48,594 bases of DNA from Candidatus Woesearchaeota archaeon. GTDB lineage: Archaea; Nanobdellota; Nanobdellia; Pacearchaeales; GW2011-AR1. Below the pieces are notes generated by a model. It was given only the letters and a program-made list of their open reading frames with translations, was not told where the DNA came from and searched no databases. Within the stretch, counting starts at the first letter, position 1, and each line of letters starts with the position of its first letter. Below are positions 7,487-24,057 of the stretch, one piece after another. Location: NCBI GenBank assembly GCA_964653605.1, contig CAZZGW010000001.1, forward strand, positions 1-48,594, in the 5' to 3' direction. The position numbers were made by a program, and so were the translations under genes.

Positions 7487-7543
7487 TTCTAAAATTTTGC
7501 AAAAAAAATAAGTAAATTTTTATTCTATTCTTCATATAAGTGA

Positions 7544-7606
7544 CATATGAAATTATTTTCATATGTATTTGACAAAAAAAAGATTTAAAATTAGAAAATC
7601 TTTTTT
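7544..7606. terminator. Two hairpins between convergent rpoD and the island (bidirectional terminator region)
   Basis: CATATGAAA-ttat-TTTCATATG (7544-7565) and AAAAAAGATTT-n9-AAATCTTTTTT (7576-7606), with A/T runs on both sides. Confidence 0.5.
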
Positions 7607-7649
7607 TGTTGTGTTAAATAACTTCCTTCAAGAGGAAAAGTTAAGAGGG

Positions 7650-7961
7650 TTAATTGTTAGTATTAATTAAAGAAATATTTTCTAAGATTCTATATTTGAT
7701 TATATCTTTCTTTAGTAAATCTGATTTAGGGAAAATTCTTCTAGAATGATAATCAAGAAATAATTTGTTGTTTCCTGCATGCCTCAACTTCACTTTCTCG
7801 TCTGACAAACAAAGGAATTTTTGATAACTTACAGTATCAATTAGTCCAGAAGAATTAATTACTTCAATTTCACAATTAACTTTATACTCCACTAAATCTT
7901 TTTCTTCGATGCATCCTGTAAAAAGGAGAGGCATTATCAATGTTAATAAAAACTTTTTCAA
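7650..7961 (-). CDS. Hypothetical small lipoprotein (lipobox LFTG|C)
   Basis: TTG start. N-terminus MKKFLLTLIMPLLFTGC. 103 aa. Confidence 0.55.
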   Translation of the reverse strand: MKKFLLTLIMPLLFTGCIEEKDLVEYKVNCEIEVINSSGLIDTVSYQKFLCLSDEKVKLRHAGNNKLFLDYHSRRIFPKSDLLKKDIIKYRILENISLINTNN

Positions 7962-8042
7962 CTTTTTTTCCTTTCTTTATTTAAGTTAATACTCCTTTGG
8001 TTATATATTTTTCTGCTTAATGCAGATTATTTGTATCAAAGG

Positions 8043-8080
8043 AAGAAAAAAACCCTTCCAAAAAGTTTCAGAAGGGTTTT
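8043..8080 (-). terminator. Intrinsic-type hairpin plus T-run after ORF 8093..8308
   Basis: AAAACCCTTC-n12-GAAGGGTTTT, followed on the minus strand by a T run. Confidence 0.5.
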
Positions 8081-8092
8081 TGATAATTTAAT

Positions 8093-8308
8093 CTAAACAA
8101 TTACTTCCTCAATAGGTTTCCCTCTCTTAGGAACCTTGAACTTTGTTTCAAAGAGAGGATTATTCTGTCCTCTTACTTTTACTACAACACAGTATCCTAC
8201 TCCTTTCATACATTGAATGGAAAGGACTTCTCTTCTTTCTCTTGAAGGCAGGTTCAAAGTAAATTCTCCGTTTGAAACTCCTACCTCAATCAATCTAATT
8301 TTAAACAT
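8093..8308 (-). CDS. Hypothetical small beta-rich protein (paralog of 8330..8611)
   Basis: 71 aa. Shares the EFxLxLP....R+(V/I)(L/I)S(I/V) and K(R/S)GKP patterns with the next ORF. Confidence 0.55.
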   Translation of the reverse strand: MFKIRLIEVGVSNGEFTLNLPSRERREVLSIQCMKGVGYCVVVKVRGQNNPLFETKFKVPKRGKPIEEVIV

Positions 8309-8329
8309 ATTTTTCGTTTATTTAAGAAA

Positions 8330-8611
8330 TTAAAACTCACATAAATGGATAGTCCTACTGGGCTTTCCTGATTTAAAACACCCAACAACCCTGCAGGGAC
8401 CATCCTGAATTATTGTTCCGGCCTCAACTGCCCTGAATTTTATTCTTTGAGTTTCCTTTCTAGGATTCAATTTAACGGAAAGATAATACCTTCCTTCCTT
8501 TTCACCTTCCCCTTCTTCAACTGAAATTATCTTTCTTTGACTCACTTTGGGTAAATCCAAGAAAAATTCTCTTTTTAGCTCAATTTCGAATTTTTTAGTC
8601 TCTAATCGCAT
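8330..8611 (-). CDS. Hypothetical small beta-rich protein (paralog of 8093..8308)
   Basis: 93 aa: FEIELKREFFLDLPKVSQRKIISV...KSGKPSRTI. Confidence 0.55.
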   Translation of the reverse strand: MRLETKKFEIELKREFFLDLPKVSQRKIISVEEGEGEKEGRYYLSVKLNPRKETQRIKFRAVEAGTIIQDGPCRVVGCFKSGKPSRTIHLCEF

Positions 8612-8687
8612 TTTATTTTGTTTTAATTAAAAAATAGTGTGCATATATTATTCTGCCCAATATAAATTATTTTTGCCAGTTCAATAA

Positions 8688-8724
8688 TAAAAAGAAACCC
8701 CTTTCAAAAAGGGAAAGGGGTTTC
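8688..8724 (-). terminator. 12-bp-stem hairpin plus T-run after ORF 8751..9308
   Basis: GAAACCCCTTTC-n7-GAAAGGGGTTTC, perfect stem. T run follows on the minus strand. Confidence 0.55.
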
Positions 8725-8750
8725 AATCATTGCTAATTACTCAAATCATA

Positions 8751-9308
8751 TCAACCAGCCCATTCCGGTCTTATGAACATTTCATCACCGTTTTGATCCG
8801 TTACTTTAAAGTATCCATTTGCACCCTCAAAAAGAAGTGTTGGTACATGCTCATAAACAATATTTGGATCTGCGCATTCTTTTAACAGCCAAATTTCCAA
8901 ACCTTCTTTGTCGTCATTAAGATATTCGGGCAAATAGGAATACGGTAGTTGTGCTCCACTTGCAAACTTTATGACTACTGAGGGCAACAAATACTTCTTA
9001 ACATACTTTTCCTCCGCAGGATGAATAAACTTCACAGGAAATAAACTGACAGTAAAAGAGGATTGATTTAGACCTACCACTGTTCCGGGATCAACTTTTA
9101 CAGTTAACTTTTCTCCAGGATCCAATGCTTCTTCCAAACCAGAGGACGCATTCTTCAAAAATGCTGCTTCAGAGATATTCTCCACTTTCTGTACCTGTGG
9201 GGCCTCTTCAACAACAGTTTCTACTTTCTTTTTGCAACTTGTTCCCAAAACAATTGCAAGGATGCCTAAAAACACCCAGATCTTTTTTATCATCTTCATT
9301 GTTTTCAT
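8751..9308 (-). CDS. Hypothetical secreted lipoprotein (lipobox LGTS|C)
   Basis: MKTMKMIKKIWVFLGILAIVLGTSCKKK. GGAGGG SD 8 nt upstream. 185 aa. Confidence 0.65.
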   Translation of the reverse strand: MKTMKMIKKIWVFLGILAIVLGTSCKKKVETVVEEAPQVQKVENISEAAFLKNASSGLEEALDPGEKLTVKVDPGTVVGLNQSSFTVSLFPVKFIHPAEEKYVKKYLLPSVVIKFASGAQLPYSYLPEYLNDDKEGLEIWLLKECADPNIVYEHVPTLLFEGANGYFKVTDQNGDEMFIRPEWAG

Positions 9309-9415
9309 TTTTTTTACCCTCCATTTTTTTAATTAAACATAACGCGTTAACTTACACTTAAACAAAATTGACTACGCCTCCTTTCTTATTTAATAAATAA
9401 ATAATTCTAATTATC

Positions 9416-9535
9416 TCATTTTCTCTTTCTATGTCGAGAAATGATGATTGAGTATCCCCAGAAGAATATTACGGTCCCTAAAATCCAGGAAGCGTTTGAT
9501 TCTATTTTATCTAAGGCTCCAAAATGCCCCCTCAT
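9416..9535 (-). pseudogene. Truncated/frameshifted copy of the 58-aa membrane mini-ORF at 10406..10582
   Basis: My translation: MRGHFGALDKIESNASWILGTVIFFWGYSIIISRHRKRK. Lacks the first TM because of a 1-nt indel relative to the full copy. Confidence 0.4.
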
Positions 9536-9550
9536 CTTTTTCTTCAAGGT

Positions 9551-9588
9551 AAAAAAAGTCCCCGAAGGCTAACTCAAATGCTTGGGGG
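9551..9588 (-). terminator. Imperfect hairpin plus T7 run after ORF 9616..10308
   Basis: CCCCGAAG-n13-CTTGGGG. The A7 run on the plus strand gives T7 after the hairpin on the minus strand. Confidence 0.4.
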
Positions 9589-9615
9589 GCTTTTTGTAAA
9601 TTTCATTAATAGGAA

Positions 9616-10308
9616 TTAGGCGCTGGATGCAAGAATTCCAGCAAGAATCATCCAAATCCCCCACCCTCCTAATGCGGAGTAGATGTTTTTGGACTTTGCC
9701 ACCTTACTATAACATTCTAAATAATCTGGGTCTGAAAACTGATAACCCCTTGGCATTGGATCAATAATAACTGCAGGTATTAATGCAAAAACCCCAAAAA
9801 GCAACCCCCCAAGAAAATATCCTCCAGTACTATGTTTCCTTCTGGCATCCCTTGCTCCCCTTGCACAACTTTCCTGGGGATTCATGGCCATTTCCATTAA
9901 TGGAGCATCCCATTTACTCATAGGATCTTTAAAAGAATAATCTGCCACATCAGAAACCGGAATTTTATAGGTATTCCCATCTTCAGCCTTAAATGTTATG
10001 GTGCAATTTTTCACCTTCTTAATTTCCCCATTGAAATACAAGAAATCATTCGGGTCAACTAAAACTTCTCCCCCTTCCGAAGAGTATATGGAAATGGGTT
10101 CCAAATCATTATAAAAATAATCCTCGGGGGCATTTGCCACTTCTGCAGAATAATCTAAAACAGGATATAGAGCAATCACATCATTCATTTCAAATGATTT
10201 GTCACGATTTTTTGCACTTACATTCCCAACAATTCCCAATAATAAAAGAATGCTAAGGAAAGGTAAAAGATACGTCCACAAACTTCTTACTTTTTTCATT
10301 TTTTTCAT
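9616..10308 (-). CDS. Hypothetical secreted protein with C-terminal membrane anchor(s)
   Basis: Signal peptide ...LLLLGIVGNVSA|KN. C-terminal hydrophobic segments GGLLFGVFALIPAVII and GGWGIWMILAGILASSA. Confidence 0.65.
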   Translation of the reverse strand: MKKMKKVRSLWTYLLPFLSILLLLGIVGNVSAKNRDKSFEMNDVIALYPVLDYSAEVANAPEDYFYNDLEPISIYSSEGGEVLVDPNDFLYFNGEIKKVKNCTITFKAEDGNTYKIPVSDVADYSFKDPMSKWDAPLMEMAMNPQESCARGARDARRKHSTGGYFLGGLLFGVFALIPAVIIDPMPRGYQFSDPDYLECYSKVAKSKNIYSALGGWGIWMILAGILASSA

Positions 10309-10405
10309 GATTTTTTGTTTTTGTTTAACAATAAATTTAGAATTGGTCCTACTTTCTCCTCCTTTCTTGTAAGTTTTAAAACTTTAGTAATTAATTCTAA
10401 TTATC

Positions 10406-10582
10406 TCATTTTCTTTCTCTATGTCGAGAAATAATGATAGAATAACCCCAACACAATAGTACTGCTCCAAAAATCCCTGAAGCATTTGATTCTATTTTAT
10501 CTAAGGCCCAAAAGATTCCCCAGAGGATAAGAAAAATTCCTCCGACCATTATGGCTATCCCACAAGATAGATTGTTTTTCAT
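10406..10582 (-). CDS. Hypothetical 58-aa 2-TM mini-protein (below the ORF-track cut-off)
   Basis: My translation: MKNNLSCGIAIMVGGIFLILWGIFWALDKIESNASGIFGAVLLCWGYSIIISRHRERK. GGAGG 7 nt upstream of the ATG. Confidence 0.55.
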   Translation of the reverse strand: MKNNLSCGIAIMVGGIFLILWGIFWALDKIESNASGIFGAVLLCWGYSIIISRHRERK

Positions 10583-10596
10583 TGTTTACCTCCTTT

Positions 10597-10791
10597 CTAT
10601 GCTGCAAAGCCTACAAAGTTTTTATTTTCTCCAGGTCCCTTTCTTCCTTTCCCAGGACTCTTGTTTTTCCCCCTTTCGAAAGTTTTTCTTCCATGGGCAA
10701 TGAGCCTTGAAATCTTTTCGGCTTGAATATTTGGGTAAATTTCCCTTTTGTCTGAAATATGATTTATACATTGCATAATCATGCCCTCCAT
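10597..10791 (-). CDS. Hypothetical small basic protein
   Basis: 64-aa ORF with a K/R/G-rich C-terminus. No family recognised. Confidence 0.4.
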   Translation of the reverse strand: MEGMIMQCINHISDKREIYPNIQAEKISRLIAHGRKTFERGKNKSPGKGRKGPGENKNFVGFAA

Positions 10792-10856
10792 TGTTAAATT
10801 TGTTAAATTAGCTCATTAAAATAAAACTCTTGTGAAGAGAGTTTTTAGGTAGAGAA

Positions 10857-11987
10857 TTAAGTCTTAGCTCTTTTTTGCATATTTTTTCCCACATCCTCTT
10901 CCAGCTTCTTCTTCACTTTCTCCCACTTTTCGTACTCTAATGCCCTCAGTATGGGAAGCATCTTCAATTCATACGCATCTAACCGGTCATGGTGTTTTCT
11001 TACCCATTTTTGATATCCCATTATAAAGAGAATCGAAATGGCCAACAAAGCACCTCCAAACACTAAGAAAATCCAGGGATTGCCCATTATCCAACACTTA
11101 TGATTTATATACGGCAGAATCTTGCGTATAAACCCAAGTGATTTTTCAGTTGTTAATGCTGAATAATAAATTGTTGAAGCGAGTGTGAGCCATAGGAACA
11201 TATGTGCAAACTTGAAAGTATGCGTCTTTATACCTCCAAAAAAGGTATATATCCTGTAAGAGATATTTGAATTCCCCTCAAAGTGCCTCTTATTTACAAG
11301 ATGGATCCAAGAAGCAACCATCCCAAACTGAATGAATGTTACAACCCAATCCAAGGGGTTTCCATCCCTCGCCGGATTATTAAATGGATGCGTCCGGACC
11401 ATAATAAAAACTGGAAGTACATATGAAAGCCCATATAACCCTGCAAGATACCCAAGGATTTTTGCTCTCCTATTGTGGATTTTTAGCAATCTTTTGCCTT
11501 CACTTATCCTTCCCCAGAAAAGAGTGCCTGTATAACTTACTAAAGGTCCTAATCCCCCTATTGCCATGCCAACTCCAAATGTCAAAGGCATTGCCGCAAT
11601 AATGAATGTAAAAAGATTCCAAGTTATAAACTTAGAAAATATTACAAGACAAACCAACGAACCTGCAAAAAGTAAGTATGGCTTTTGATGCATAAAAGAA
11701 GAACCTCCCCTCCTCATGTAAATGCTAACTATTCTTTCATCTTCTGAAAGAAAGAGTTGTCGCATGAAGTGCATCCAAATTACTCCTAAATTTGAAATGC
11801 CCCATCCAAACCATGCAGAATACCAAAGAAACTTTCCATCCAGTTCTGGATCTCCTTTTTCAATGGCATAGTACAAGAATAAAAAGTTTGAGAGAATATA
11901 AACAAGGAGATAACTTCCCCTTAGGAAGTTTGCAAATCTTCTTCCTCTTTCTGCTTTTTCTTTAATGTATTCTACGGTATGTGTCAT
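10857..11987 (-). CDS. Hypothetical polytopic membrane protein (about 9-10 TM, apparent internal two-fold repeat)
   Basis: 376 aa. Two halves share the pattern DG(K/N)xL(W/D)...W(I/M)H...RI(V/Y)(S/T)...GG...F. C-terminal K/E helix. Confidence 0.65.
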   Translation of the reverse strand: MTHTVEYIKEKAERGRRFANFLRGSYLLVYILSNFLFLYYAIEKGDPELDGKFLWYSAWFGWGISNLGVIWMHFMRQLFLSEDERIVSIYMRRGGSSFMHQKPYLLFAGSLVCLVIFSKFITWNLFTFIIAAMPLTFGVGMAIGGLGPLVSYTGTLFWGRISEGKRLLKIHNRRAKILGYLAGLYGLSYVLPVFIMVRTHPFNNPARDGNPLDWVVTFIQFGMVASWIHLVNKRHFEGNSNISYRIYTFFGGIKTHTFKFAHMFLWLTLASTIYYSALTTEKSLGFIRKILPYINHKCWIMGNPWIFLVFGGALLAISILFIMGYQKWVRKHHDRLDAYELKMLPILRALEYEKWEKVKKKLEEDVGKNMQKRAKT

Positions 11988-12054
11988 CGTCTTTTGGTTT
12001 TAAGAAACCTCTCATTCTTGTAAAGAGAATTTTAGGTTTCAAATTATTGCTAAT

Positions 12055-13512
12055 TCATTTTAACTTTACAACCCTTGCAATCCGCAGATTATCTCCATTG
12101 AAAGAATGGTTCCTATCTAACACTGTCCACTCTCCATACTTATGAATTACAAATCCTACACGAATTACATCATTGAATTTTATTTCATCAAGAGATGAAT
12201 AATACATGAATGGTTTTCCATAGGTGCCGGTTTCATACCATACAACATCACTTTTCCCCTCAAGAACTTTTCCAGTAATGATAATTGCAGAACCATTTGA
12301 CCTCATGAAAATCAATTCAACTTTCCAAGTACTTCTGCTTCCAACATCAAGTTCAACAGCAGTTATTGCGCTTTCAGGAAATTCAGGAGTATAAAATTCA
12401 GCCCAATTTTCCCCATATTTGTGTAATACAACGGTTCCATTTCCTTCAGGAGAATTAATTTCATTTATAGAAATCAATCCTTCTTCAAAAAGATAACCTT
12501 TATCCCAATAGTGATGGCTATTATCTGGATGATTAAAATCATCTTGTATACTTGGAGCTGGAATAAAATTACTGCTTTCACAATCACACCCACACAAGAT
12601 AAAATTTGATATTACTTCATCTGGCTGATCAATTCCATCTCCATTATTATCAAAATACCAAATATACATGATTCCAGAACCCCCATCACAATCCCAATGT
12701 GAAAGGAAATTTATTGCATGAAGAGAAGGAGTTTCCCCATTCAATCCATTTTTAGGAATCTCAAATGCAATGGAATCTACAATAACTCCATCAACCTGGC
12801 TAAGGATAATAAATAAATCATCAAAAATATCAAAGGTTATACTAGGGGTTTGTCCATCTTTACCATTCAATCCATCCTGTCCATCTTCACCATCTTTACC
12901 ATTTGTTCCATGCCAAGTGATAAAACCTCCCTTGTATTCATCTCCTTCAGAAACTTTACCATCCCTATTCATATCCCAATACAGCCTGGTTTCGGTTCCA
13001 TATACTTCAATTTCCCCTGCATTATAAACCACTTCAACATATTCTGGAACAAGACTAAATCCTGACTCTCCTAATGGAATCTGTATTATTAAAGTCCCAA
13101 CAAGCTGATCTCCTTTATAGGATTTAGCAATTATGGAGCCTCCTGGAGAATCATCTGTTGGAGGTAAAGCTTCAAGACTCAAGCTTGCATCTAAACCATT
13201 TTTTCCATCTTTTCCATCCTGTCCATCTTCACCATCTTCACCATTTGTTCCATTAAAGAGAGTAAGACTATTATCAAATTTGTCTCCTTCTGTATAGTTT
13301 AAACTATAATCCATGTCTAAATAATAGCTTGTAGTATAACCAAGTAAAACTCCATCTGTTGAATAAACAGGATCTACTTTAGTTACAGAGGAATAGCCAT
13401 CTTTTCCATCCTGACCATCATCCCCGTCATGTACAAAAATATCTTCTGAGCATGACAACATGGCAAATGAAATTGCCAATAAAATTCCGAACACTTTAAC
13501 AAATGTTTTCAT
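12055..13512 (-). CDS. Secreted lipobox protein with three short collagen-like (G-X-Y) tracts and beta-rich domains
   Basis: MKTFVKVFGILLAISFAMLS|C; DGDDGQDGKDG; NGTNGEDGEDGQDGKDGKNG; HGTNGKDGEDGQDGLNGKDG. Confidence 0.75.
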   Translation of the reverse strand: MKTFVKVFGILLAISFAMLSCSEDIFVHDGDDGQDGKDGYSSVTKVDPVYSTDGVLLGYTTSYYLDMDYSLNYTEGDKFDNSLTLFNGTNGEDGEDGQDGKDGKNGLDASLSLEALPPTDDSPGGSIIAKSYKGDQLVGTLIIQIPLGESGFSLVPEYVEVVYNAGEIEVYGTETRLYWDMNRDGKVSEGDEYKGGFITWHGTNGKDGEDGQDGLNGKDGQTPSITFDIFDDLFIILSQVDGVIVDSIAFEIPKNGLNGETPSLHAINFLSHWDCDGGSGIMYIWYFDNNGDGIDQPDEVISNFILCGCDCESSNFIPAPSIQDDFNHPDNSHHYWDKGYLFEEGLISINEINSPEGNGTVVLHKYGENWAEFYTPEFPESAITAVELDVGSRSTWKVELIFMRSNGSAIIITGKVLEGKSDVVWYETGTYGKPFMYYSSLDEIKFNDVIRVGFVIHKYGEWTVLDRNHSFNGDNLRIARVVKLK

Positions 13513-13547
13513 AATTTCTGAATTTTGGTTTATTTTTATTAAATTAT

Positions 13548-14711
13548 TTATTTGGTTCTATTCAAATTTACTGATAGACAAATTTCTGTTGGAGAAATTA
13601 TATATTTCCCTTCCATCCTATGAAAATGCCAAGCTCTCCCAAATTCGGTTAAAGCCAATGTTCCTGCAACCCCTGCACCAATTCTTAGACCCATTATGGT
13701 GTTTGACTTTCGTTTTGCTGCAGAATTATCAGCAGGATAATCCCTAAACACTGGATGCCCCATTATTTCTGTTGTCCCATAAAGACCAAGCCCAATTCCG
13801 CTAAAAATTAATCCGTTGCGAAAGGACTTTTCTGTTTTTCTCCGATAGGGGTTTTCCCAATATTCTATAAATACATTATAACCTGAAATTACTGGGTTTA
13901 CAGGCATATTAAGCATATCCTGATATGTTACACTCTTCCTTAGAATTTCCCATGTCTGCTCGGGATTATCTTTTTTCATTACAACTTCTATAGAATCATC
14001 TTCAATTCTAGAAACAGGTCCAATTTCCCATTCATACTCTGCGGTTCTCATCCCCTTTTCAAACTCTTCAAAATCAAGCGTTTCTAAAATAGGAACAATA
14101 GAGTCTTTGAAAAAATTCCATTCGGATTCATTAACTCCTGAAAAAATAAACCTCCTAAAAAATTCGAGATAATTCTCAAGACATTCTTCACAATCGGCTT
14201 CAACTTCTATAATTTTGTCTTCAATTGTAACCTGGCTTGGAATATTAGAGGATTTGTTAACCATTGCAGCCTTAACCCTTGTTGCAGGATTTCCATTTTT
14301 TGTAGTCCTAGTAACAATCACTGCTGGTTTCTGATTTTCATACTTATCAAGGTGTTTCTGCTGGACTTCACGAATATCCTCCAAAAATCCGATTTCCATT
14401 TTCCGGTGCTTAACTTCTTTTTTCAGACAATCATTTTCTGCTTCCAATTGAACATTTTTAATCATTAATTCCTGCTTCGCTTTTTGCAGGTCATTGATAG
14501 TTTTAACCATCTTATCTCCTGAACACTTTGAAAAGAATAAGATTATTAATAGAAAAATAAACAGGACAATTGCTCCTGCTCTCCACCATTTCTTATTGGT
14601 GTTGTCAATCTCGCGCTGATTTTTTTCAGCTTTTAATTCCCACTTCAAAATCTCTACTTGCTCCTGAGAAGTCTTACCTTCGAGAATTTTGTTTAATTCA
14701 TCTTTTTTCAT
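13548..14711 (-). CDS. Hypothetical single-pass membrane protein with coiled coil and Gly-rich C-terminus
   Basis: TM WWRAGAIVLFIFLLIILFF. Coiled coil INDLQKAKQELMIKNVQLEAENDCLKKE. C-terminal GLIFSGIGLGLYG / GLRIGAGVAGTLA. Confidence 0.65.
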   Translation of the reverse strand: MKKDELNKILEGKTSQEQVEILKWELKAEKNQREIDNTNKKWWRAGAIVLFIFLLIILFFSKCSGDKMVKTINDLQKAKQELMIKNVQLEAENDCLKKEVKHRKMEIGFLEDIREVQQKHLDKYENQKPAVIVTRTTKNGNPATRVKAAMVNKSSNIPSQVTIEDKIIEVEADCEECLENYLEFFRRFIFSGVNESEWNFFKDSIVPILETLDFEEFEKGMRTAEYEWEIGPVSRIEDDSIEVVMKKDNPEQTWEILRKSVTYQDMLNMPVNPVISGYNVFIEYWENPYRRKTEKSFRNGLIFSGIGLGLYGTTEIMGHPVFRDYPADNSAAKRKSNTIMGLRIGAGVAGTLALTEFGRAWHFHRMEGKYIISPTEICLSVNLNRTK

Positions 14712-14814
14712 GGTTTTTAAAATTTAAATTTTTAATTTGTTTATGTTTTACTTGATTTTTTCAATATATGTTGTTCTGCTTCCATGGTCTGAGCATAATA
14801 TTTTTTCCAAAAGA

Positions 14815-14847
14815 AAGAACCTTCATTAGAAAGTCTAAAGAAGGTTC
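14815..14847 (-). terminator. 9-bp hairpin after ORF 14856..15224
   Basis: AGAACCTTC-n15-GAAGGTTCT. Confidence 0.4.
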
Positions 14848-14855
14848 TGTGATTG

Positions 14856-15224: not shown

Positions 15225-15261
15225 ACTTTTCTCTTCCTTTTTAATTAATAATTAATTTTGA

Positions 15262-15597: not shown

Positions 15598-16154
15598 GGC
15601 TCCAAGATTAAAGGTTCAACCTTGGATACAAGCCCATCAAAATCAGAGTCTTTATACAATTTTGACCTGTTTGTCTCTACCAGAACAGAACCAAAACATA
15701 GTGAGAGGTTCTCAAGATGATATGTTACTTCAAAAGTTCCTGCCGGTTCATTATTTTCTTCGGATAAATTTCCTCCAATCAAAAGAACATCCCCCGATAA
15801 TGGAAAGATTATCCAAAATTTATTCCCAAAATTCCAGGAAATAAACCCTCTCCCTTTTTCCTTTTGTGCAAGGTCTTCCAATTCCTTTAAGGTAAACTTC
15901 TTGACATAGGAAGGCCTGTATTCTCCTTCTTCCCAAATTGTTATTAAAACAAGATTCTTACTTGGATCTTCCTTCAAGATTGTGTTGAAGTATAGAGAGG
16001 TTCCATATCCTTGATTTTCAAAGGATTCTGCTTTTCCAACCAAGCAGGGGGACATTTCAAAAACATATTCTCCTAAAATGTTTTTAATTATTTGCGCATC
16101 CGCATTAATTGTGAATGCAATAATTCCTAGCACTACAAGAATTAGATTTTTCAT
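15594..16154 (-). CDS. Hypothetical secreted protein
   Basis: Signal peptide MKNLILVVLGIIAFTINADA|Q. 186 aa. Confidence 0.6.
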   Translation of the reverse strand: MKNLILVVLGIIAFTINADAQIIKNILGEYVFEMSPCLVGKAESFENQGYGTSLYFNTILKEDPSKNLVLITIWEEGEYRPSYVKKFTLKELEDLAQKEKGRGFISWNFGNKFWIIFPLSGDVLLIGGNLSEENNEPAGTFEVTYHLENLSLCFGSVLVETNRSKLYKDSDFDGLVSKVEPLILEP

Positions 16155-16190
16155 CTTTTCTCTTTTTTTGTTTTTAATTAATATTTATGT

Positions 16191-16445
16191 TTATTTTCTA
16201 TATGCTATTTTGTTTTCAATAAACAAAACTAATCTCAACAGAACTAAAACCATAAGGTAAGTAAAGAATATGGCTAATCCAAAAGAGACATTTGGATGTA
16301 TTGACCAGGATTCAAACCCTCCAACTATAAAGTTAAAAAATCCCAAGATTAATTTTCCAATTTTTTGAGAAACCAATCCCAAACTAACAAGCAATGTCCA
16401 CAAGGATACTGCTATCCATAACATTCTAAAGGTTTTTCTTTTCAT
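16191..16445 (-). CDS. Hypothetical 3-TM mini membrane protein
   Basis: 84 aa, hydrophobic. Confidence 0.5.
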   Translation of the reverse strand: MKRKTFRMLWIAVSLWTLLVSLGLVSQKIGKLILGFFNFIVGGFESWSIHPNVSFGLAIFFTYLMVLVLLRLVLFIENKIAYRK

Positions 16446-16457
16446 CTTTTCTTGGAT

Positions 16458-16940
16458 TTAATTACTCGTTGTTATTTTCTTTTTTCCCTCTCTTACACCT
16501 AAAATTGAGGAAACCACAAATCCCCCAAATAAAAGTATTATTGATGATGTGACTACCCAATTAATATGGATTGTTTCAAAGAAACCATTTCCTCTCAGAA
16601 GAGAAGAAATCATAACGCCTAAAAAGATTATTACTATAGCTAAAAAAGGTAAGGCCATTCCCAGTGCCACCTTATTTGCAAATTCATTCCTGAAATTATC
16701 AAAATGAATTCCTTTTTCTTCACAAGATTCATTCAGGAAATCAATAAAGAAAATGCTTCCAAGGAATGCTTCCAAACAACCTACAAAAAAGCCAAACACA
16801 TTCCAAAGGTCTGAAGGTTTTCCTATTTCTCCTAAGAATAATCCTTGAAAGAAATCTATTCTTTTAAACAGCATATAAATTACTGTTGCAAAGAAAAATA
16901 TTGCCAAACTTAGATTTATTATTTTTTCTGTTCTTTTCAC
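16458..16940 (-). CDS. Hypothetical 4-TM membrane protein
   Basis: 160 aa with four hydrophobic segments. Confidence 0.55.
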   Translation of the reverse strand: MKRTEKIINLSLAIFFFATVIYMLFKRIDFFQGLFLGEIGKPSDLWNVFGFFVGCLEAFLGSIFFIDFLNESCEEKGIHFDNFRNEFANKVALGMALPFLAIVIIFLGVMISSLLRGNGFFETIHINWVVTSSIILLFGGFVVSSILGVREGKKKITTSN

Positions 16941-17076
16941 AATTTCTAAGATTTAAATTTAATTATTTATTTTATTTTTCTCTATATCTTGATTCGCTTC
17001 TTACTAAGCGAATTATTATCTCCAATTTAAAGTCAAGCGTATCAAGCCCTGACTCCAACCAACTTCACATGTTGAG

Positions 17077-17313
17077 TTATTCACTTTCATAAATAACTTC
17101 ACATTTTTTATTGAAAACCTTATTAACAACATCCAAAGGAATTGATGAGGCAGATGCCAAGCACCCTTTTTCAAAAGAACCTGTAAAAGCATCCAAGACA
17201 ATTACCTTGTCTCCTACTTTAGATAATTTTCCAACCTCTTGCTTCTTCATTCCATATTGCTCATAATGAACAATAACCCAATCTCCTACATAATTTTTCA
17301 TCTTGTTTTTCAT
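17077..17313 (-). CDS. Hypothetical small cytosolic beta-rich protein
   Basis: 78 aa: GDWVIVHYEQYGMKKQEVGKLSKVGDKVIVLD (SH3/KOW-like feel only). Confidence 0.45.
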   Translation of the reverse strand: MKNKMKNYVGDWVIVHYEQYGMKKQEVGKLSKVGDKVIVLDAFTGSFEKGCLASASSIPLDVVNKVFNKKCEVIYESE

Positions 17314-17364
17314 GATTTATAAAATTTAATAAATATTAATATTGATTTTACTGGATTTTTTACA

Positions 17365-17556
17365 TTATTTTACTTTGTTTCTCTTTTTATCAATCTTATT
17401 GAATATTCTAATCCCTATAAGGATCATAATGAGTAGGATAAGTAATCCAATGGCAATTCCAAAATTGAGGAGTGCTCCATTGATTATTCCGACTATTGCG
17501 ATTATTGCACAAAGGGGAATGGCTGCTTGACGAATAAATTCTCTTAAGGTTTCCAT
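17365..17556 (-). CDS. Hypothetical 2-TM mini membrane protein (first gene of the membrane-protein train)
   Basis: 63 aa. AT-rich TATA-like region and the GAAATACC array lie upstream. Confidence 0.5.
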   Translation of the reverse strand: METLREFIRQAAIPLCAIIAIVGIINGALLNFGIAIGLLILLIMILIGIRIFNKIDKKRNKVK

Positions 17557-17611
17557 CTCGATTTTTATTTAGTTTATGTTGATTTATTTGTTATATTATT
17601 AATATATTAAA

Positions 17612-17687
17612 ACAGGGTATTTCCTGTGTAATTTCAGTGTATTCCGAGGTTATTTCGGGGTATTTCATGTGTGAAATAAGTGTATTT
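17612..17687 (-). promoter_or_regulatory. Phased array of 5 GAAATA(C)C boxes upstream of the membrane-protein train
   Basis: Minus strand reads catGAAATACCccGAAATAACCtcgGAATACACtGAAATTACacagGAAATACCctg, box spacing 9-12 nt, about 55-130 nt upstream of ATG 17556. Confidence 0.5.
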
Positions 17688-17875
17688 GTAATTCTATTGA
17701 TAGAAATTCTTAAGCACTCTAAAGCGAGTTGCTTCTTTTGTATCTTGTGGTTGTTAATCCAACTTCAAGACTAAGAGTTCAATGCGTTACATAACCTATT
17801 ATTAATCTTACCTTGTTGTTCCTTTCGTTTTATTGATTGATTGGAAATTTGGTTTGACTAATGTGCGGGGGTGTA

Positions 17876-19963
17876 TTAATTGATGTTCTCTAAGGGTTGT
17901 GTTTGTGATTTATTTAATGAATTTGATAACCTGATGAACTTTTTCCAGCCGGTTTTACTTTTTTGTTCTTCTACTGCTACTACTTCTTTTTCCATTAGTT
18001 TATTCTTGAGAGAATTCCCTTTTCTTGCTGAGAATCCCATGTTCTTGTAAAGTTCAACAGTACTGTAATTGTGATTTGGAAATTCCATTAAGAAACTTAA
18101 AAATATTTTTTCTTCATCTTCAAAGTTATCTAAGAATGCTTGATCTAGCTTTTCTTGATTTTCTTGTATTTCTTTTTCTGTATCTATTTCTGAAAATTCT
18201 ACAACTGGCTGATTTAATTGTTCACTTATTACTTTGCTCATTACAATTAAAACATCTTCAGAAGTGTAACCATTTTTGTTTACTCCAGATTCTAATACTT
18301 TTTCTATGTTCTTTAAGTCATGGCCTTTTGCCATTTCTTCTTTTACAAAACTAAAAAGCACTCCTTGAGAGTATTCTGGATCATAAACTTCATCTTCAGT
18401 TATTCCAGAGATTTCACTTTCCTGTGTATTTTGAGGTATTTCACCTATTTCACTGTGTGGGTGTTCCAGGGTTCTTTCATGTTCTTTCAATTTAGAAATA
18501 CCCCATTTACTATGTTCCGCTTCCTGTTCAATTGTTATTGCATCCATAAATTCTGGATCTTCCCTTTCGGCTTCAATTCCTTGCATTATTGCATCTGCTC
18601 TTGAAGTTATTTTCTCGTCTGAAATCGATTGTTCTGTTAGTGCCATATAGGGGGTTTTAACTAAGAATGGGAGGGTATATCTTTCTGATAACTTAACAAC
18701 TGCAGACCCAACTTTCAACTGGGAGAATGCTTCTTTCTTTTGGTGTAATTGGGTTATGGAGCTTATATCGTAAATATCTTGGGGTAATTGCTGTTGGAAT
18801 GCTACGTGGCATGCGCTATTTCCCTTTACTGTATCTGATAACTTTGAAATATGTTGGTCTAAACAAATAAGGCTAGTCCCATATTCCCTCATTTCCCTAT
18901 AAGCCATATCTGTAATTGATTCTGAGATAAAATTTGTTTTATCTTTTAAGAAAACATTGTGTGCTTCATCAACTAAAATTGCATAATCAAAATCCCCATT
19001 AGATTTGTGTGGGGAGGCTTTCTTTTGTTTGTAAATATATGTTAAAACGAACTCGCAAAAGAATTTCTTTTCTATGTTTCCTAAGGAATTTAACTCGAAT
19101 ACAGCCCTTTTATTGAATAAATCTTCAACAGACAAGCTTTTCTTACCTTCATAATTTATTACGTTTCCAAATGCTCCAAAAGTTAAAACTGAGGCTATTC
19201 TTAATGCACTTTCAAGCCACTCAGACTCTCTTCCTCTTGCATCTCTTGCTTTTTGTTCAAGCATTTTCTTAACATGTAACCAATTAGGATAATGTCTTTT
19301 TTCTTCTGGAAGTTTGTAAATATCCCATCCTTCAAAAATCTCATCAAGAGTTTCTAAAAGAATTTTATGAACACCAAATGAAGCTGAGAAACTTTCAGTA
19401 AGCAAATCTGCTAAAACATTAATCCATTCTTTTGGTGCAACTCCTTTTGGAGGAACATTAATATTTGTTTTGAATAAATTTGCAACTGAATCATTTCCAA
19501 TTGTAAAAACCATTAAACTTGGATCCACATTCACAAGGGGACGGAAACTTCTTTTCCAATCAAAGACTAAAAAAGGTTTGTCTTTTCCAATAAAGTTTTC
19601 AAGAATATTAAATGCAAAATTTGTTTTACCAGAACCACTCATACCAGTAATACAAACGTGTCTTGGCCAATCTTTTTCATTTAATCCAAAAGTGTATAAT
19701 TCTTTATCTGCATAAATTATATTCCCAAGAGGGTATTCCCCTATTATTTCCGATTGTTTTGGAGGTTCTAAAAGTAAACTTTGATCTAAAAGTTTGTTAA
19801 GATTTTTTTGATAAAGTAAAGTTATAACTTGCAAAATTTCATTTTTTTCTTCCAATGAATTTGCTACAGCGTATTGGGCATAAATTCTATCAATTTTTTC
19901 TCCAAAAAAAGGTTTTAATTTTCTACACATATCTTCAACTGTTAGACTTCTTTGATTCATCAT
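17876..19963 (-). CDS. FtsK/HerA-superfamily P-loop ATPase with acidic linker and C-terminal winged-helix domain
   Basis: Walker A RHVCITGMSGSGKTN. FLVFDWKRSF. Walker B YAILVDEAHNVF. REYGTSLICLDQH. C-terminal IFLSFLMEFPNHNYSTVELYKNMGFSARKGNSLKNKLMEKEVV. Confidence 0.8.
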   Translation of the reverse strand: MMNQRSLTVEDMCRKLKPFFGEKIDRIYAQYAVANSLEEKNEILQVITLLYQKNLNKLLDQSLLLEPPKQSEIIGEYPLGNIIYADKELYTFGLNEKDWPRHVCITGMSGSGKTNFAFNILENFIGKDKPFLVFDWKRSFRPLVNVDPSLMVFTIGNDSVANLFKTNINVPPKGVAPKEWINVLADLLTESFSASFGVHKILLETLDEIFEGWDIYKLPEEKRHYPNWLHVKKMLEQKARDARGRESEWLESALRIASVLTFGAFGNVINYEGKKSLSVEDLFNKRAVFELNSLGNIEKKFFCEFVLTYIYKQKKASPHKSNGDFDYAILVDEAHNVFLKDKTNFISESITDMAYREMREYGTSLICLDQHISKLSDTVKGNSACHVAFQQQLPQDIYDISSITQLHQKKEAFSQLKVGSAVVKLSERYTLPFLVKTPYMALTEQSISDEKITSRADAIMQGIEAEREDPEFMDAITIEQEAEHSKWGISKLKEHERTLEHPHSEIGEIPQNTQESEISGITEDEVYDPEYSQGVLFSFVKEEMAKGHDLKNIEKVLESGVNKNGYTSEDVLIVMSKVISEQLNQPVVEFSEIDTEKEIQENQEKLDQAFLDNFEDEEKIFLSFLMEFPNHNYSTVELYKNMGFSARKGNSLKNKLMEKEVVAVEEQKSKTGWKKFIRLSNSLNKSQTQPLENIN
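18408..18463 (-). repeat. Intragenic GTGAAAT(A/C) box array inside the ATPase linker-coding region
   Basis: Minus strand reads GTGAAATAGGTGAAATACCtcAAAATACacaggaaaGTGAAATC and encodes HSEIGEIPQNTQESEIS. Confidence 0.5.
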
Positions 19964-20406
19964 TTTAATTCCCCTTCCCTATCAAGAATTTTTTGAAGTT
20001 TAGAGGGAACGAAATACTTTACATCCATTGTTTTAAGATATTCTTCAGAATTTCTAATTGAACTATCCACCTCATCAAAAGAAGCACTTTTACTAAAATC
20101 TCCTTGAGCCCTTCTTCTTTCTGCAACTTGTAGAGGATTTACGTGAGTAACGACTCCTGCGTGGAAAGGAGCTTTACCCTCGGCAATATGTTTTGAGAAC
20201 CAACCAACAAGATATCCTCTTTCTGGTTTTTCAGATTCTTGAAGCCCTTCAAGAACTTCTTCTGAACCGTATCTTTGAACAAACTCATCTTTAGTCCTTT
20301 CCAAAGCTACATAAAGCGCTGTTCCAAGAGAATTTGAAGTTCCACTTGATTCTACGGATTTTATTTTTCCTTCCATTTCTCTGTAAAATCTTGTTTTTGC
20401 TTTCAT
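19960..20406 (-). CDS. Hypothetical protein, translationally coupled to the ATPase (4-nt overlap)
   Basis: 148 aa. No family recognised. Confidence 0.6.
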   Translation of the reverse strand: MKAKTRFYREMEGKIKSVESSGTSNSLGTALYVALERTKDEFVQRYGSEEVLEGLQESEKPERGYLVGWFSKHIAEGKAPFHAGVVTHVNPLQVAERRRAQGDFSKSASFDEVDSSIRNSEEYLKTMDVKYFVPSKLQKILDREGELK

Positions 20407-20873
20407 TATGCTGCTTTAGCAAAATCCCCTTGAGAGTATCTTACTAATTGATTTACTTTTTCTTGAGGAATAGTTTTTCTTAATCCTTTATCTAGAATTT
20501 TCAAAAGGTTAGTTGCGTTTTCTTTTAACTCAACTTCAAGGGATTCTTTCAATTCTTTCTCAGTTGGATTGCTAAAATATTCTCTTGTCTTAACAGTTGC
20601 TTTGTAAAAATTATCTACACCATTGAACATTTCTAATGACTTTATCAACGCAGATTCATTAGCAATTCTTACTAGGTTGCTTGTATCTTCAACTTCCTCT
20701 CCAGTGTATTGTTTTCTCATTTCCAGGTCATATCCAAGAGTCATTCCGGTGAATATTTCTGCAGTTTGTAAATTGAAGCATCCTCTAGCTTCTGCTTTAA
20801 GGTATTTCCCATATTCTTCAGCATTCATTTCCTTTGTTTCTTTATCTGATTTCATCTTAATTTTCCTCATCAA
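20406..20873 (-). CDS. Hypothetical protein (operon member)
   Basis: 155 aa. 1-nt overlap with the downstream ORF. Confidence 0.6.
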   Translation of the reverse strand: MMRKIKMKSDKETKEMNAEEYGKYLKAEARGCFNLQTAEIFTGMTLGYDLEMRKQYTGEEVEDTSNLVRIANESALIKSLEMFNGVDNFYKATVKTREYFSNPTEKELKESLEVELKENATNLLKILDKGLRKTIPQEKVNQLVRYSQGDFAKAA

Positions 20874-21309
20874 GCAATTTATTTATTGAATTTACTCTTT
20901 CTTCTTTTTCACTTAATTCTTGTTCTTGGGACCTAAGTTCTTTCTTAAGTAAAGCTACATCTTTCCAAGAATCAATTTTTTCTTTCATTTGAATTTCAGA
21001 GATTTCTATCTTTTTTGTTCTAAGTAAGTTCTTTTCTTTCATCAAATCCGCTTTTTCAAACTCAGTAGTATTTTCATTTTCTAAAAGGAAGTTATTAATT
21101 TCAGTCTTAACTGACTCTCCTTCTTTAATGAAGTTTTCGCTAAGCTCTTCTCTTTCATTTATCAAAATTCCTATGTCTTTGACAGAGTCTTTCAAGGCAT
21201 TAATTTTGGCTAGGCCTATCTTTGTCAGATCAGAGCCCGAGCTAGTTATTTCAGGTTTTTCAAAGCTTATTACGGGTTTTCCACCCTTTAAAAGATCACT
21301 TATTTCCAT
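20857..21309 (-). CDS. Hypothetical coiled-coil protein (first gene of the ATPase operon)
   Basis: 150 aa, K/E/L heptad-like. TTTATAAAG about 25 nt upstream of the ATG. Confidence 0.6.
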   Translation of the reverse strand: MEISDLLKGGKPVISFEKPEITSSGSDLTKIGLAKINALKDSVKDIGILINEREELSENFIKEGESVKTEINNFLLENENTTEFEKADLMKEKNLLRTKKIEISEIQMKEKIDSWKDVALLKKELRSQEQELSEKEERVNSINKLLDEEN

Positions 21310-21425
21310 AATTATATAGTAGTAACATACTTTATAAATGTTTCTATCTTGTTGCTATTATATAATGGGTACAAACTAAGAAAAGAAAGTTTAAATAAGT
21401 CGGATTTTTGATAAATTAGTCTTGT

Positions 21426-21458
21426 GCGGAGTTGCCGGAGTGGTCAGACTCAGAATCA
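21426..21458 (+). pseudogene. Partial duplicate of the tRNA-Leu 5' region
   Basis: GCGGAGTTGCCGGAGTGGTCA (21/21 identical to 21500-21520), then GACTCAGAATC (compare GACTCAAAATC of the anticodon arm). No T-arm or 3' acceptor. Confidence 0.6.
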
Positions 21459-21499
21459 AAATTCTGGTGCTATCCCCCTCCAACCCAAAAAAACAGAAT

Positions 21500-21583
21500 G
21501 CGGAGTTGCCGGAGTGGTCAAACGGGACGGACTCAAAATCCGTTAGCTTAGTGCTTACACAGGTTCGAACCCTGTACTCCGCA
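21500..21583 (+). tRNA. tRNA-Leu (anticodon CAA)
   Basis: Acceptor GCGGAGT/ACTCCGC, anticodon stem ACGGA/TCCGT with loop CTCAAAA, long variable arm, T-arm ACAGG TTCGAAC CCTGT. Confidence 0.85.
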
Positions 21584-21756
21584 TATATTCTTTTAGATGG
21601 TGATAATAAATATAAAGGAAATTTTTCTATTTATGAAATATGGGAAGATTAAATGGCTTGGAAACAAGAATCTTTGGGGAGCTTATTTCTGAAGAAAATC
21701 CGGAAAGATATCTTGAAAAACAAGCTCTTTTAAAGAAAATTTAAGGAAAAATATAA

Positions 21757-21783
21757 GTGAAATACCCGAAATACCTTGAAATC
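21757..21783 (+). promoter_or_regulatory. GAAATACC box array upstream of ORF 21834..22109
   Basis: GTGAAATACCcGAAATACCttGAAATC followed by TATATTAAAAAA. Inverted relative to the 17.6-kb array, so it has the same orientation relative to its downstream gene. Confidence 0.5.
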
Positions 21784-21833
21784 TATATTAAAAAACAATA
21801 ATTAATATAAAATATCAAATCCTTGATTCTTAT

Positions 21834-22109
21834 ATGGGCATAGAAGAAGAATTACCGGGATTAAGGAAAGGATTTTCTCAGGAATTGAAAGATACTCCTG
21901 ATTTTTTGGGTCATAAAGTTATAAGGCAAAGCAAGGTTGATGAGGCTTATAGAAAGTTTCTAAATAAAAAATATAGAGATAAATGGATTGATGTAGATTA
22001 TAAGATTTTCTTTAATGACGAATTTTTTGTAGAAAAAATTATGAAAAATTTTGGATTCAATAAGGGAAGTGGAAATCTTGGGCAGGAAAGTTTTTATTTT
22101 AAAAAGTAG
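21834..22109 (+). CDS. Hypothetical protein
   Basis: 91-aa ORF. No family recognised. Confidence 0.5.
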   Translation: MGIEEELPGLRKGFSQELKDTPDFLGHKVIRQSKVDEAYRKFLNKKYRDKWIDVDYKIFFNDEFFVEKIMKNFGFNKGSGNLGQESFYFKK

Positions 22110-22213
22110 AGACCGAATGATTTATAAACCGAAATAATCTAGGAATCTTACCTGCGAGTTTACGCGTAAGCGGGGGCATAAATGCTCTTTCTCGTTAAAT
22201 TAAGGTAATTAAA

Positions 22214-24049: not shown

Positions 24050-24057
24050 TATTTAGT

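Follow-up and report, generated by a model that had tools for sequence, protein, structure and literature searches.

A conserved HerA/VirB4-clade ATPase locus with a structured RNA and a hypervariable envelope-protein array lies between rpoD and rpl18e in DPANN archaea

From comparisons of synteny, sequence, predicted structure and RNA covariation, we conclude that the interval between rpoD and rpl18e (positions 7487-22213) on contig CAZZGW010000001.1 of a Candidatus Woesearchaeota archaeon (assembly GCA_964653605.1) is, very probably, not a mobile island but a conserved and ancestral part of the chromosome in a large Woesearchaeota/Pacearchaeota-type DPANN clade. In this locus, a conserved motor module is combined with a structured RNA and with a hypervariable array of envelope genes; the module comprises a protein of 150 residues (p150; 20857-21309, minus strand) and a 695-residue P-loop ATPase of the HerA/VirB4 clade (17876-19963, minus strand). 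An ancient insertion at the base of this clade split the rpoD-rpl18e junction. The whole stretch analysed, 48,594 nucleotides of low-GC (about 32%) archaeal sequence, is referred to here as the window. No published description of the locus was found in the literature on DPANN archaea in connection with DUF87, HerA, FtsK or hypervariable surface proteins.

Eighty species-representative loci of relatives were compared; counts out of 81 include the window. p150 occurs together with the ATPase in 76 of the 81 loci, and in 39 of the 62 loci whose upstream sequence is long enough the L18e-L13-S9 genes are located no more than 2.5 kb from the pair and are divergent from it; a tRNA-Leu(CAA) gene stands between the pair and L18e in 37 of these 62, as it does in the window. 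On the other side, RpoD-S11-S4-S13-DUF655 are found 2.15-10.39 kb downstream of the ATPase in 20 loci, the longest gap being that of the window, and the complete arrangement rpoD / array / ATPase / tRNA-Leu-L18e recurs in 20 loci. Identity to the window in the relatives L002, L001, L005 and L004 is 84, 77, 57 and 56% for the ATPase, 83, 80, 51 and 48% for p150, and 81, 73, 56 and 52% for L18e. Among 33 species, mean pairwise identity is 61% for the ATPase, 52% for p150, 66% for S9 and 59% for L13, and pairwise identity correlates with the S9+L13 mean at r=0.74 (ATPase) and r=0.78 (p150), as compared with r=0.67 for S9 versus L13. Since the identities of the pair follow those of S9 and L13 in the way that S9 follows L13, p150 and the ATPase have been inherited vertically at housekeeping rates. 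In a second clade (ATPase identity about 50-53%), the pair is located after the genes for L35Ae, L10e and a THUMP methyltransferase and before that for phosphoenolpyruvate synthase. The original prediction had described the interval as an accessory island, and had stated that the same genes at the same locus in relatives, with housekeeping-level conservation, would speak against this. Such conservation is what we observe for p150 and the ATPase; the description holds for the array of about 10 kb (7650-17556), which is variable between relatives.

The left boundary of the interval is rpoD (6785-7486, plus strand; Pfam RNA_pol_A_bac and RNA_pol_L), which is convergent with the array and closes a series of plus-strand genes recognized by Pfam: L21e (4040-4309), Rpb4-like (4311-4604), DUF655 (4604-5152), S13 (5149-5679), S4 (5682-6209) and S11 (6209-6760). 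The right boundary is rpl18e (22214-22600, plus strand; Pfam Ribosomal_L27A and L18), which is divergent from the p150-ATPase operon and is followed by L13 (22597-23004, plus strand; Pfam) and S9 (23001-23399), the latter assigned through S9 genes of relatives (56-85% identity) carrying PF00380. RpoN is displaced to 3434-3631 on the minus strand (Pfam), and occupies the same relative place in L005, L022, L033, L040, L041, L042 and L085. The Pfam-annotated flanks thereby confirm the earlier placing of the rpoD stop at 7486 and of the rpl18e start at 22214, the location of rpoN elsewhere on the opposite strand, and the view that something has been wedged into the canonical archaeal order S13-S4-S11-RpoD-L18e-L13-S9-RpoN. 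This cluster was split at the base of the clade and has since been kept split in the same way, which makes it a useful synteny marker.

A chimeric assembly had been raised as the alternative to a genuine interruption of the cluster. Both junctions are reproduced in an independent assembly of the same population (ENA sample ERZ27316756): contig L089 runs from the array into RpoD-S11-S4-S13 with 99.83% identity to the window, and contig L087, with 99.8-100% identity, covers the stretch from Xer to the ATPase by way of S9-L13-L18e-tRNA-p150. Because the two junctions recur in independent contigs, a chimera is ruled out. The interval contains 22 non-overlapping minus-strand open reading frames (ORFs) of at least 43 codons (7650-21309) and one on the plus strand; the strand bias seen at first stands, and the count replaces an initial estimate of about 24. 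The plus-strand ORF (21834-22109; 91 residues), located between tRNA-Leu and rpl18e, has no Pfam match and is 49% identical to the ORF at the same position in L001. As anticipated, no ORF of the interval matches a housekeeping family in Pfam, NCBIfam or PHROG, and the ATPase is the sole strong domain match in these three collections.

The presence of an FtsK/HerA-type ATPase was also foreseen correctly. The protein matches Pfam DUF87, the HerA central domain (E=6e-9), and Zot (E=6.5e-6), and its AlphaFold2 model (mean predicted local distance difference test score, pLDDT, 76.8) is predicted to comprise an N-terminal helical domain (residues 9-60), a beta-hairpin (77-94), a RecA-like core (about 100-440), a disordered linker (471-525), a second helical domain (529-627) and a C-terminal winged helix (635-687). 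The Walker A (GMSGSGKT, 107-114) and Walker B (VDEAH, 331-335) motifs are invariant in 27 sequences. Foldseek matches of the model include DndH-C, Sulfolobus and Thermococcus HerA, defence HerAs, TdpA and VirB4 (E from 3e-12 to 1e-9), and the best hit of a profile search against the PDB is S. solfataricus HerA (4d2i, E=1e-4). Judging from this modelled RecA-like P-loop core with both Walker motifs, the ATPase is a member of the HerA clade of the FtsK-HerA superfamily. Within the HerA/VirB4 clade it forms a new branch, outside every named family: the best NCBIfam model is CedD, at 54.1 bits for a cut-off of 600 and with its best stretch at query residues 79-149, and the NCBIfam HerA models reach only 16-20 bits for cut-offs of 800. 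The AlphaFold2 model lacks a HAS barrel, the place of which is taken by helices 9-60 and the single beta-hairpin 77-94; no NurA-like gene adjoins the ATPase gene, and no transmembrane (TM) segment is predicted in the window protein. At the C-terminus, the H-H-H-beta-beta topology of residues 616-679 in the model fits a winged helix, with weak matches to DnaD_N, HTH_36, TrmB and PDB 2vn2 (E=0.39); Pfam gives no FtsK_gamma match and an insignificant one to FtsK_SpoIIIE (E=0.08). The search returned 979 detectable relatives, and the best 120 of the 979 are full length and 54-100% identical. They come from metagenome-assembled genomes of Woesearchaeota, Pacearchaeota and Nanoarchaeota, across which identities of 55-60% are seen; some are on contigs of almost 300 kb. 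Their annotation goes no further than "DUF87 domain-containing" or "ATP-binding protein".

The first gene of the module encodes p150, a cytoplasmic protein predicted to form a two-helix hairpin. Its AlphaFold2 model (pLDDT 84) consists of helices 25-77 and 83-149, arranged as a long coiled-coil hairpin, and an invariant motif, W115-K116-D117, is found in helix 2. None of its 286 database relatives has a Pfam domain. Foldseek gave nothing significant; the matches at E of 0.3 and above, all coiled coils (Vipp1, YscO/FliJ-like and V-ATPase subunit G among them), are non-specific. A WXG turn is absent, the loop at residues 78-82 reading ENENT. Between p150 and the ATPase, 0-5 variable small genes are found across the loci; many loci have none and the window has two, both on the minus strand. 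The first (20406-20873; 155 residues) has no family match, PADLOC included, and its sole relative is a weak one at the same place in L002 (jackhmmer, 1e-14). The second (19960-20406; 148 residues), the stop codon of which overlaps the ATPase start, belongs to a sporadic family (F41) without a Pfam, NCBIfam or PADLOC match, which has homologs at the same position in five further loci (L058, L032, L026, L040 and L044). A jackhmmer search for hidden homology among these middle genes across loci yielded small sporadic families only.

Between the ATPase stop and the array lies an element of about 160-190 nucleotides (17622-17779, minus strand, within a wider block at about 17590-17800) that carries GAAATACC and GAAATAAC boxes. 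In the window, L002 and L001, the nucleotide sequence of the gap of about 320 nucleotides that follows the ATPase stop is better conserved than the neighbouring coding sequence; the RNA block itself is about 90% identical among these three, as against an ATPase amino-acid identity of 77-84%. Six species form a sub-group in which hairpins stand between the boxes and show obvious compensatory changes, and a covariance model built from these six species finds the element in the window with 28.7 bits (E=2e-4). Its 25 hits with E<5e-4, among 31 sources, are all on the ATPase strand and directly after the ATPase (for instance L025:4233-4406, L033:7006-7181 and L028:12036-12212). The RNA is thus found in at least 25 species, with three covarying hairpins and a 3' region of alternative pairing between GGTATTTC and GAAATACC. 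In the alignment, which was fitted to the model and is to be read with that caveat, 87% of cells are paired, as compared with 34-52% when the partners are slid by 1-3 columns, and double (compensatory) changes occur in 27 of 40 pairs; the observed values were unmatched by any shuffle. The covariation strongly supports a structured RNA, and one that is undescribed: when 7400-22300 was searched against Rfam 15 at E<=1, no model other than that of the tRNA attained its gathering score, and 17557-17875 was without a match. H/ACA and C/D small RNAs (sRNAs) were considered and set aside, the hairpins being short and, by eye, devoid of pockets or k-turn geometry, and Rfam lending no support.

The boxes are clustered directly 3' of the ATPase gene as 2-7 direct 8-mer repeats. 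Searched in the ATPase orientation over 80 loci, GAAATA[CA]C occurs 176 times in the first 500 nucleotides past the ATPase stop and about twice in each other 500-nucleotide bin; GAAATACC is present in 59 of 79 post-ATPase gaps. The window holds 10 copies of GAAATACC, the excess being mostly in or beside the locus and the frequency elsewhere near chance. A genome-wide polar motif of the KOPS type was rejected on this low number and on the nature of the intragenic copies, which are in-frame codons: 29 of 34 intragenic GAAATA[CA]C copies are in frame 0, and these copies, which encode E-I-P or P-E-I-T, have no relation to the RNA element. One of them (18435-18442) encodes an in-frame E-I-P tripeptide in the disordered linker of the window ATPase (residues about 508-510), and E-I-P recurs, often twice, in the otherwise unconserved linker of about 20 relatives; it may be a short linear interaction motif. 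The RNA element and the first array gene have an AT-rich, TATA-like stretch between them, and on its other side the element has, in the six-species group, a conserved sequence resembling AAAGATTTT. Because these sequences flank the element, an independent sRNA or a 3' untranslated region of the ATPase is as likely as a leader of the array. Two adjoining GAAATACC boxes are also found at 21759-21775 (plus strand), upstream of the 91-residue ORF and in the opposite orientation to the ATPase-side element, and the covariance model gives a weak match at 21665-21786 (plus strand, E=0.026); this may be a second, degenerate copy of the RNA element or a shared regulatory box.

The array (7650-17556) comprises 18 co-directional minus-strand ORFs of 43-485 residues, mostly encoding membrane, signal-peptide or lipobox proteins: small proteins with two TM segments, proteins with four to about nine, secreted proteins and lipoproteins. 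From the ATPase side onward, 17 of these are proteins of 63 residues with two TM segments (17365-17556), 78 residues (17077-17313), 160 residues with four TM segments (16458-16940), 84 residues with two (16191-16445), 186 residues with a signal peptide (15594-16154), 111 residues with a TM segment (15262-15597), 122 residues (14856-15224) and 387 residues with a TM segment and a coiled coil (13548-14711); a 485-residue lipoprotein with collagen-like G-x-D repeats (12055-13512) and a polytopic protein of 376 residues (10857-11987); proteins of 64 residues (10597-10791), 58 residues with two TM segments (10406-10582) and 230 residues with a signal peptide and a TM segment (9616-10308); and, toward rpoD, a 185-residue lipoprotein of family F34 (8751-9308), proteins of 93 (8330-8611) and 71 (8093-8308) residues, and a 103-residue lipoprotein (7650-7961). 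Among 243 array genes from 20 loci, 65% have no BLAST relative in the other loci (34% on the housekeeping side), 70% have a predicted TM or signal segment (26% on the housekeeping side) and 85% are on the ATPase strand. Even relative to L002, whose ATPase is 84% identical, collinearity is limited to the central genes (27-48% identity), and other genes have taken the place of the ATPase-proximal part. The first array genes in most loci encode small 2-TM or polytopic (4-9-TM) proteins, for which no sequence similarity was detectable across loci or to Pfam. TM-rich variable arrays follow the ATPase again in most loci of the second clade; essentially no co-directional array is present after the ATPase in L063 and L068. 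The boundaries on the ATPase/RNA and rpoD sides are conserved in 20 loci and the lengths range from 2.2 to 10.4 kb, as in a flexible genomic island. Integron-like cassettes, suggested by a conserved platform with a variable co-directional array behind it, were rejected: the spacers in the window array, mostly of about 12-140 nucleotides, leave little room for attC sites, no recombinase adjoins, and the intergenic repeats (D4-D8) are AT-rich sequences resembling promoters or ribosome-binding sites.

Recurrent but patchy array families of the other loci include adhesin-like proteins with PKD and CBM96 domains, CarboxypepD_reg-like lipoproteins and weakly OMP beta-barrel-like proteins. Some array proteins of relatives look bacterial (Bacteroidota-like; L027:7108-7896, family F46; L021:6225-8471, F42; L005:13365-14819, F64). 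One of these resembles, weakly, an outer-membrane beta-barrel (PF13505, E=2.7e-5) and ends in an aromatic residue; others are PKD+CBM96 or CarboxypepD_reg-like lipoproteins. Such proteins are unexpected in archaea, which have no outer membrane. Within the window array, a 126-nucleotide direct repeat (9398-9523 and 10388-10513; 84% identity) covers the gene for the 58-residue 2-TM protein and a truncated copy of 43 residues, and represents a local duplication of a unit made up of a small TM gene and a secreted-protein gene. A sub-threshold Rfam match to the C/D-box snoRNA SNORD108 (11969-12038, plus strand; 35.5 bits for a gathering score of 46, E=0.001) spans the intergenic region and gene start between the 376- and 485-residue genes, on the strand opposite to them.

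What the locus does is a matter of more tentative interpretation. The reading we lean toward, without considering it established, is that of an ATPase-driven, envelope-associated translocation or assembly apparatus. Its cytoplasmic motor would be the ATPase, probably in hexameric form, and p150 would be a stalk or adaptor of the motor; the small 2-TM, polytopic, lipoprotein and adhesin-like proteins encoded downstream would provide the membrane and extracellular parts, the exposed ones diversifying under pressure from hosts or viruses; and the RNA would regulate the array or be co-expressed with it. Such an apparatus would be functionally analogous to Ced or to minimal type IV secretion system (T4SS) machineries. 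The hexameric state, the binding of p150 to the ATPase, the substrate and a functional link of the ATPase to the array are all inferred. The link is suggested by three observations: a TM-rich co-directional array follows the ATPase in two genomic contexts, array genes encode TM or signal segments far more often than genes on the other side (70% against 26%), and the first array genes, with their 2-TM and polytopic products, have the composition of Ced/T4SS inner-membrane parts. Several points weigh against an envelope apparatus. The ATPase has no TM segment and no membrane protein is conserved alongside it across the clade; the array families are patchy and 65% of the genes are singletons; and L063 and L068 are essentially array-less, which implies that the motor does not strictly need adjacent array genes. 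The CedD similarity (54 bits against 600) has its best stretch only around Walker A (residues 79-149), members of the HerA clade are mostly DNA translocases or helicases, and the predicted winged helix suggests binding of nucleic acid; a purely cytoplasmic DNA function would agree with both equally well. Finally, given the TATA-like sequence ahead of the first array gene, the array may have a leader other than the RNA.

An extension of this interpretation, which we hold to be rather unlikely as a whole, would make the locus the single-copy core of an unrecognized envelope-spanning translocation machine of Woesearchaeota/Pacearchaeota-type DPANN archaea, with a soluble winged-helix ATPase motor, a coiled-coil stalk, control through the GAAATACC-box RNA and a diversifying surface interface. 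DPANN archaea are believed to depend on attachment to hosts and on the import of many building blocks, and to our knowledge the machinery of their cell-cell interface is largely uncharacterized. If the extension holds, the diversifying components would be the interface for host contact, DNA uptake or effector delivery of these episymbionts. The locus is a testable candidate for such an interface, combining a motor conserved like ribosomal proteins, a partner without a known family and a new RNA with surface and membrane genes whose turnover exceeds that of all their surroundings.

Alternatively, two unrelated things may share one address: p150 and the ATPase would form a housekeeping, sequence-guided double-stranded DNA translocase or helicase acting in segregation, dimer resolution or repair, an archaeal counterpart of FtsK/HerA; the array would be an independent flexible island of envelope genes gathering at a permissive site, and the GAAATACC boxes or the RNA would serve the ATPase or its mRNA and not the array. 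This is a serious possibility, if still a doubtful one. It would account for the conservation of the pair at the level of ribosomal proteins and its near-universal distribution, for a HerA-clade enzyme with a C-terminal winged helix and neither a TM segment nor a conserved membrane partner, and for loci in which the array is absent or minimal (L063, L068, L040 and L041). The conserved proximity to XerA and to a recombinase-domain protein, and a distance in the window of about 12 kb from cdc6-polD, would also suit a DNA function, as would 8-mer repeats beside the gene of a winged helix-turn-helix (wHTH) translocase, an arrangement that recalls TraB-clt or FtsK-KOPS. However, the array follows the ATPase in two chromosomal contexts, a pattern for which a site-specific hot spot would hardly suffice by itself, and the boxes lie in a region of strong covariation at the RNA level. 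Nor is GAAATACC distributed genome-wide, its frequency outside the locus being about that of chance; the Pfam results for FtsK_gamma and FtsK_SpoIIIE given above do not favour an FtsK-like reader, and there is no adjacent nuclease partner.

A HerA-based defence or conflict system, in which the ATPase and p150 would sense or process invading nucleic acid and the variable genes would encode effectors, immunity proteins or decoys, appears improbable. Sir2-HerA, DUF4297-HerA, DndH and TdpAB are indeed among the structural neighbours, PADLOC assigns the ATPase to mad8 (4e-10) and to several HerA models, and the neighbouring genes turn over at an extreme rate, as they typically do in conflict loci. 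Yet defence systems are patchy and mobile, whereas this pair is near-universal, occupies a fixed locus and co-diverges with ribosomal proteins. The ATPase is the only PADLOC match on the locus, no nuclease, Sir2, TIR or other effector domain is encoded next to it (Pfam, NCBIfam, PADLOC), and the array products are envelope proteins.

Least tenable is the earlier view of an integrated or decayed mobile element (defective provirus, integrative and conjugative element or plasmid remnant) at tRNA-Leu, which we regard as highly improbable: it could draw on a location next to a tRNA gene with a partial 5' duplicate, on the frequency of FtsK/HerA ATPases in archaeal viruses and conjugative elements, on ATPase matches to PHROG 2666 ("terminase large subunit", 1e-12) and Zot, and on many ORFans, but the locus is at the same place in at least 39 species with vertical inheritance, and an ancient domestication at the base of the clade, possible as it is, would no longer be a mobile element. 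The tRNA-Leu(CAA) gene itself (21499-21584, plus strand; ARAGORN, Rfam 59 bits) is the canonical spacer element upstream of rpl18e and is at the same place in L001, L002, L004 and L005. The duplicate of its 5' end exists, as was first noted: 24 of 25 nucleotides of the original at 21499-21523 are repeated at 21425-21449, 74 nucleotides away and on the same side of the interval. It opens a 74-nucleotide insertion (21425-21498, plus strand), the rest of which is a degenerate, anticodon-arm-like sequence with CAA still present. The segment is missing from the independent contig L087, which is 100% identical on both flanks, and contig L088 breaks off precisely at the tRNA-Leu 5' repeat. The insertion is therefore a strain polymorphism (indel) or an assembly artefact and not an att site, and as a sign of mobility the duplicate fails, since it is local and does not bracket the island: no attL/attR pair encloses the interval and no tRNA-derived copy was found near 7.5 kb. 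A split or pseudo tRNA was also rejected, the copy being called neither by ARAGORN nor by Rfam and being absent from L087.

The gene content and composition of the interval also speak against a mobile element. As stated in the original prediction, the interval has no integrase, replicase or capsid gene; integrase domains are absent from all its ORFs in Pfam and NCBIfam. The closest tyrosine recombinase (24954-25856) lies outside the interval, beyond S9, and is a chromosomal Xer, since its synteny extends over about 40 species, with identities of 55-75%. The ATPase had been taken for a mobile-element trait; it is a vertically inherited core gene without relatives in IMG/VR, and the phage and plasmid collections contain only partial matches to its core, at 23-28% identity and none of them full length. 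PHROG and Pfam matches within the interval are restricted to the ATPase core and the collagen-like repeats. The suggested k-mer comparison did not single out the island either, its tetranucleotide profile being no outlier relative to the rest of the window; the strongest outlier is outside it, at 27-31.5 kb. For genome scans, the lesson is that strand-biased, ORFan-rich blocks beside a tRNA can be ancient chromosomal features.

Elsewhere in the window, the stretch to the right of S9 (23508-25856) encodes small membrane proteins (TM2, DUF2752, DUF4389), followed by a 182-residue recombinase-domain protein (24419-24967) that overlaps Xer and is syntenic with it in about 40 species. The strongest tetranucleotide outlier and the lowest GC (down to 0.26-0.28) are found at about 26000-31500, just upstream of cdc6 (31529-32743) and of the genes for the small and large PolD subunits. 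An HTH_36/DnaD_N-like protein (29065-29766) is encoded in this region, as is an ORF that matches PhiKZ_gp86 weakly (28114-28800). The region probably represents the origin of replication or a second variable region, if not both. Beside tRNA-Gly (1759-1832), an ORF at 1841-2665 (minus strand) forms a BLAST family (F63) with L004:8137-8892, which carries PF14528 (LAGLIDADG_3) and is located between tRNA-Leu and p150. These may be homing-endonuclease-like genes that recur beside tRNA genes.

When the locus is compared with known systems, there is no evidence for a categorically new mechanism; it is a variant of a HerA/VirB4-centred system combined with a flexible genomic island. Canonical archaeal HerA-NurA, which is associated with Mre11-Rad50, provides the best PDB profile match and a top Foldseek match through S. 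solfataricus HerA, but no NurA, Mre11 or Rad50 gene is adjacent here, and the ATPase has a helical domain with a beta-hairpin where HerA has its HAS barrel, as well as an additional, predicted winged helix at its C-terminus. A further comparison is with the Ced/Ted systems of DNA import and minimal archaeal T4SSs (CedB/CedD/VirB4 with CedA/VirB6-like and CedA1/VirB2-like proteins). These share with the present locus a HerA/VirB4-clade motor, CedD being the top NCBIfam model, and the encoding of the ATPase together with small 2-TM and polytopic proteins. Ced is chromosomal, not plasmid-borne, and combines 2-TM and polytopic inner-membrane parts with an ATPase whose family features are an N-terminal TM segment and a VirB4-NTD-like domain (PMC11868833). 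The present locus is likewise chromosomal, but its ATPase scores far under the CedD cut-off and has a helical N-terminus and a C-terminal winged helix instead of the N-terminal TM segment and VirB4-like domain. It also has no clade-wide membrane partner; p150 and the RNA element are without Ced counterparts, and Ced is found in Crenarchaeota, whereas this locus is found in DPANN archaea.

The type VIIb secretion loci of Firmicutes (esxA...essC with a strain-variable substrate and immunity region) have a similar anatomy, in which a helical-hairpin protein and an FtsK-HerA-superfamily ATPase are followed by a hypervariable co-directional block. EssC/EccC, however, are multi-domain FtsK/SpoIIIE proteins with TM segments and FHA domains, whereas the ATPase here has a single soluble HerA-type domain; p150, at 150 residues, has no WXG motif, and no equivalents of EsaA, EssA or EssB are conserved. 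The resemblance would be one of analogy only. In FtsK, SpoIIIE and Streptomyces TraB, a C-terminal wHTH domain reads 8-bp motifs (KOPS, or the TRS repeats of clt, which adjoins traB). The predicted succession of motor, linker and C-terminal winged helix, with 8-mer repeats directly 3' of the gene, is alike, but the ATPase core here is of the HerA and not the FtsK clade and lacks a membrane anchor, and the repeats lie in hairpins with RNA-type covariation, the motif being neither polarized nor spread over the window. For the array, parallels would be flexible islands at fixed core positions, such as HVR2 of SAR11 between rRNA genes and the "metagenomic islands" of cell-surface genes. Like these, the array has a fixed position between conserved translation and transcription genes, varies in content among close relatives and is rich in envelope proteins; unlike them, it encodes small membrane proteins and lipoproteins in place of glycosylation genes, and is tied to an ATPase/RNA module with which it travels into a second genomic context.

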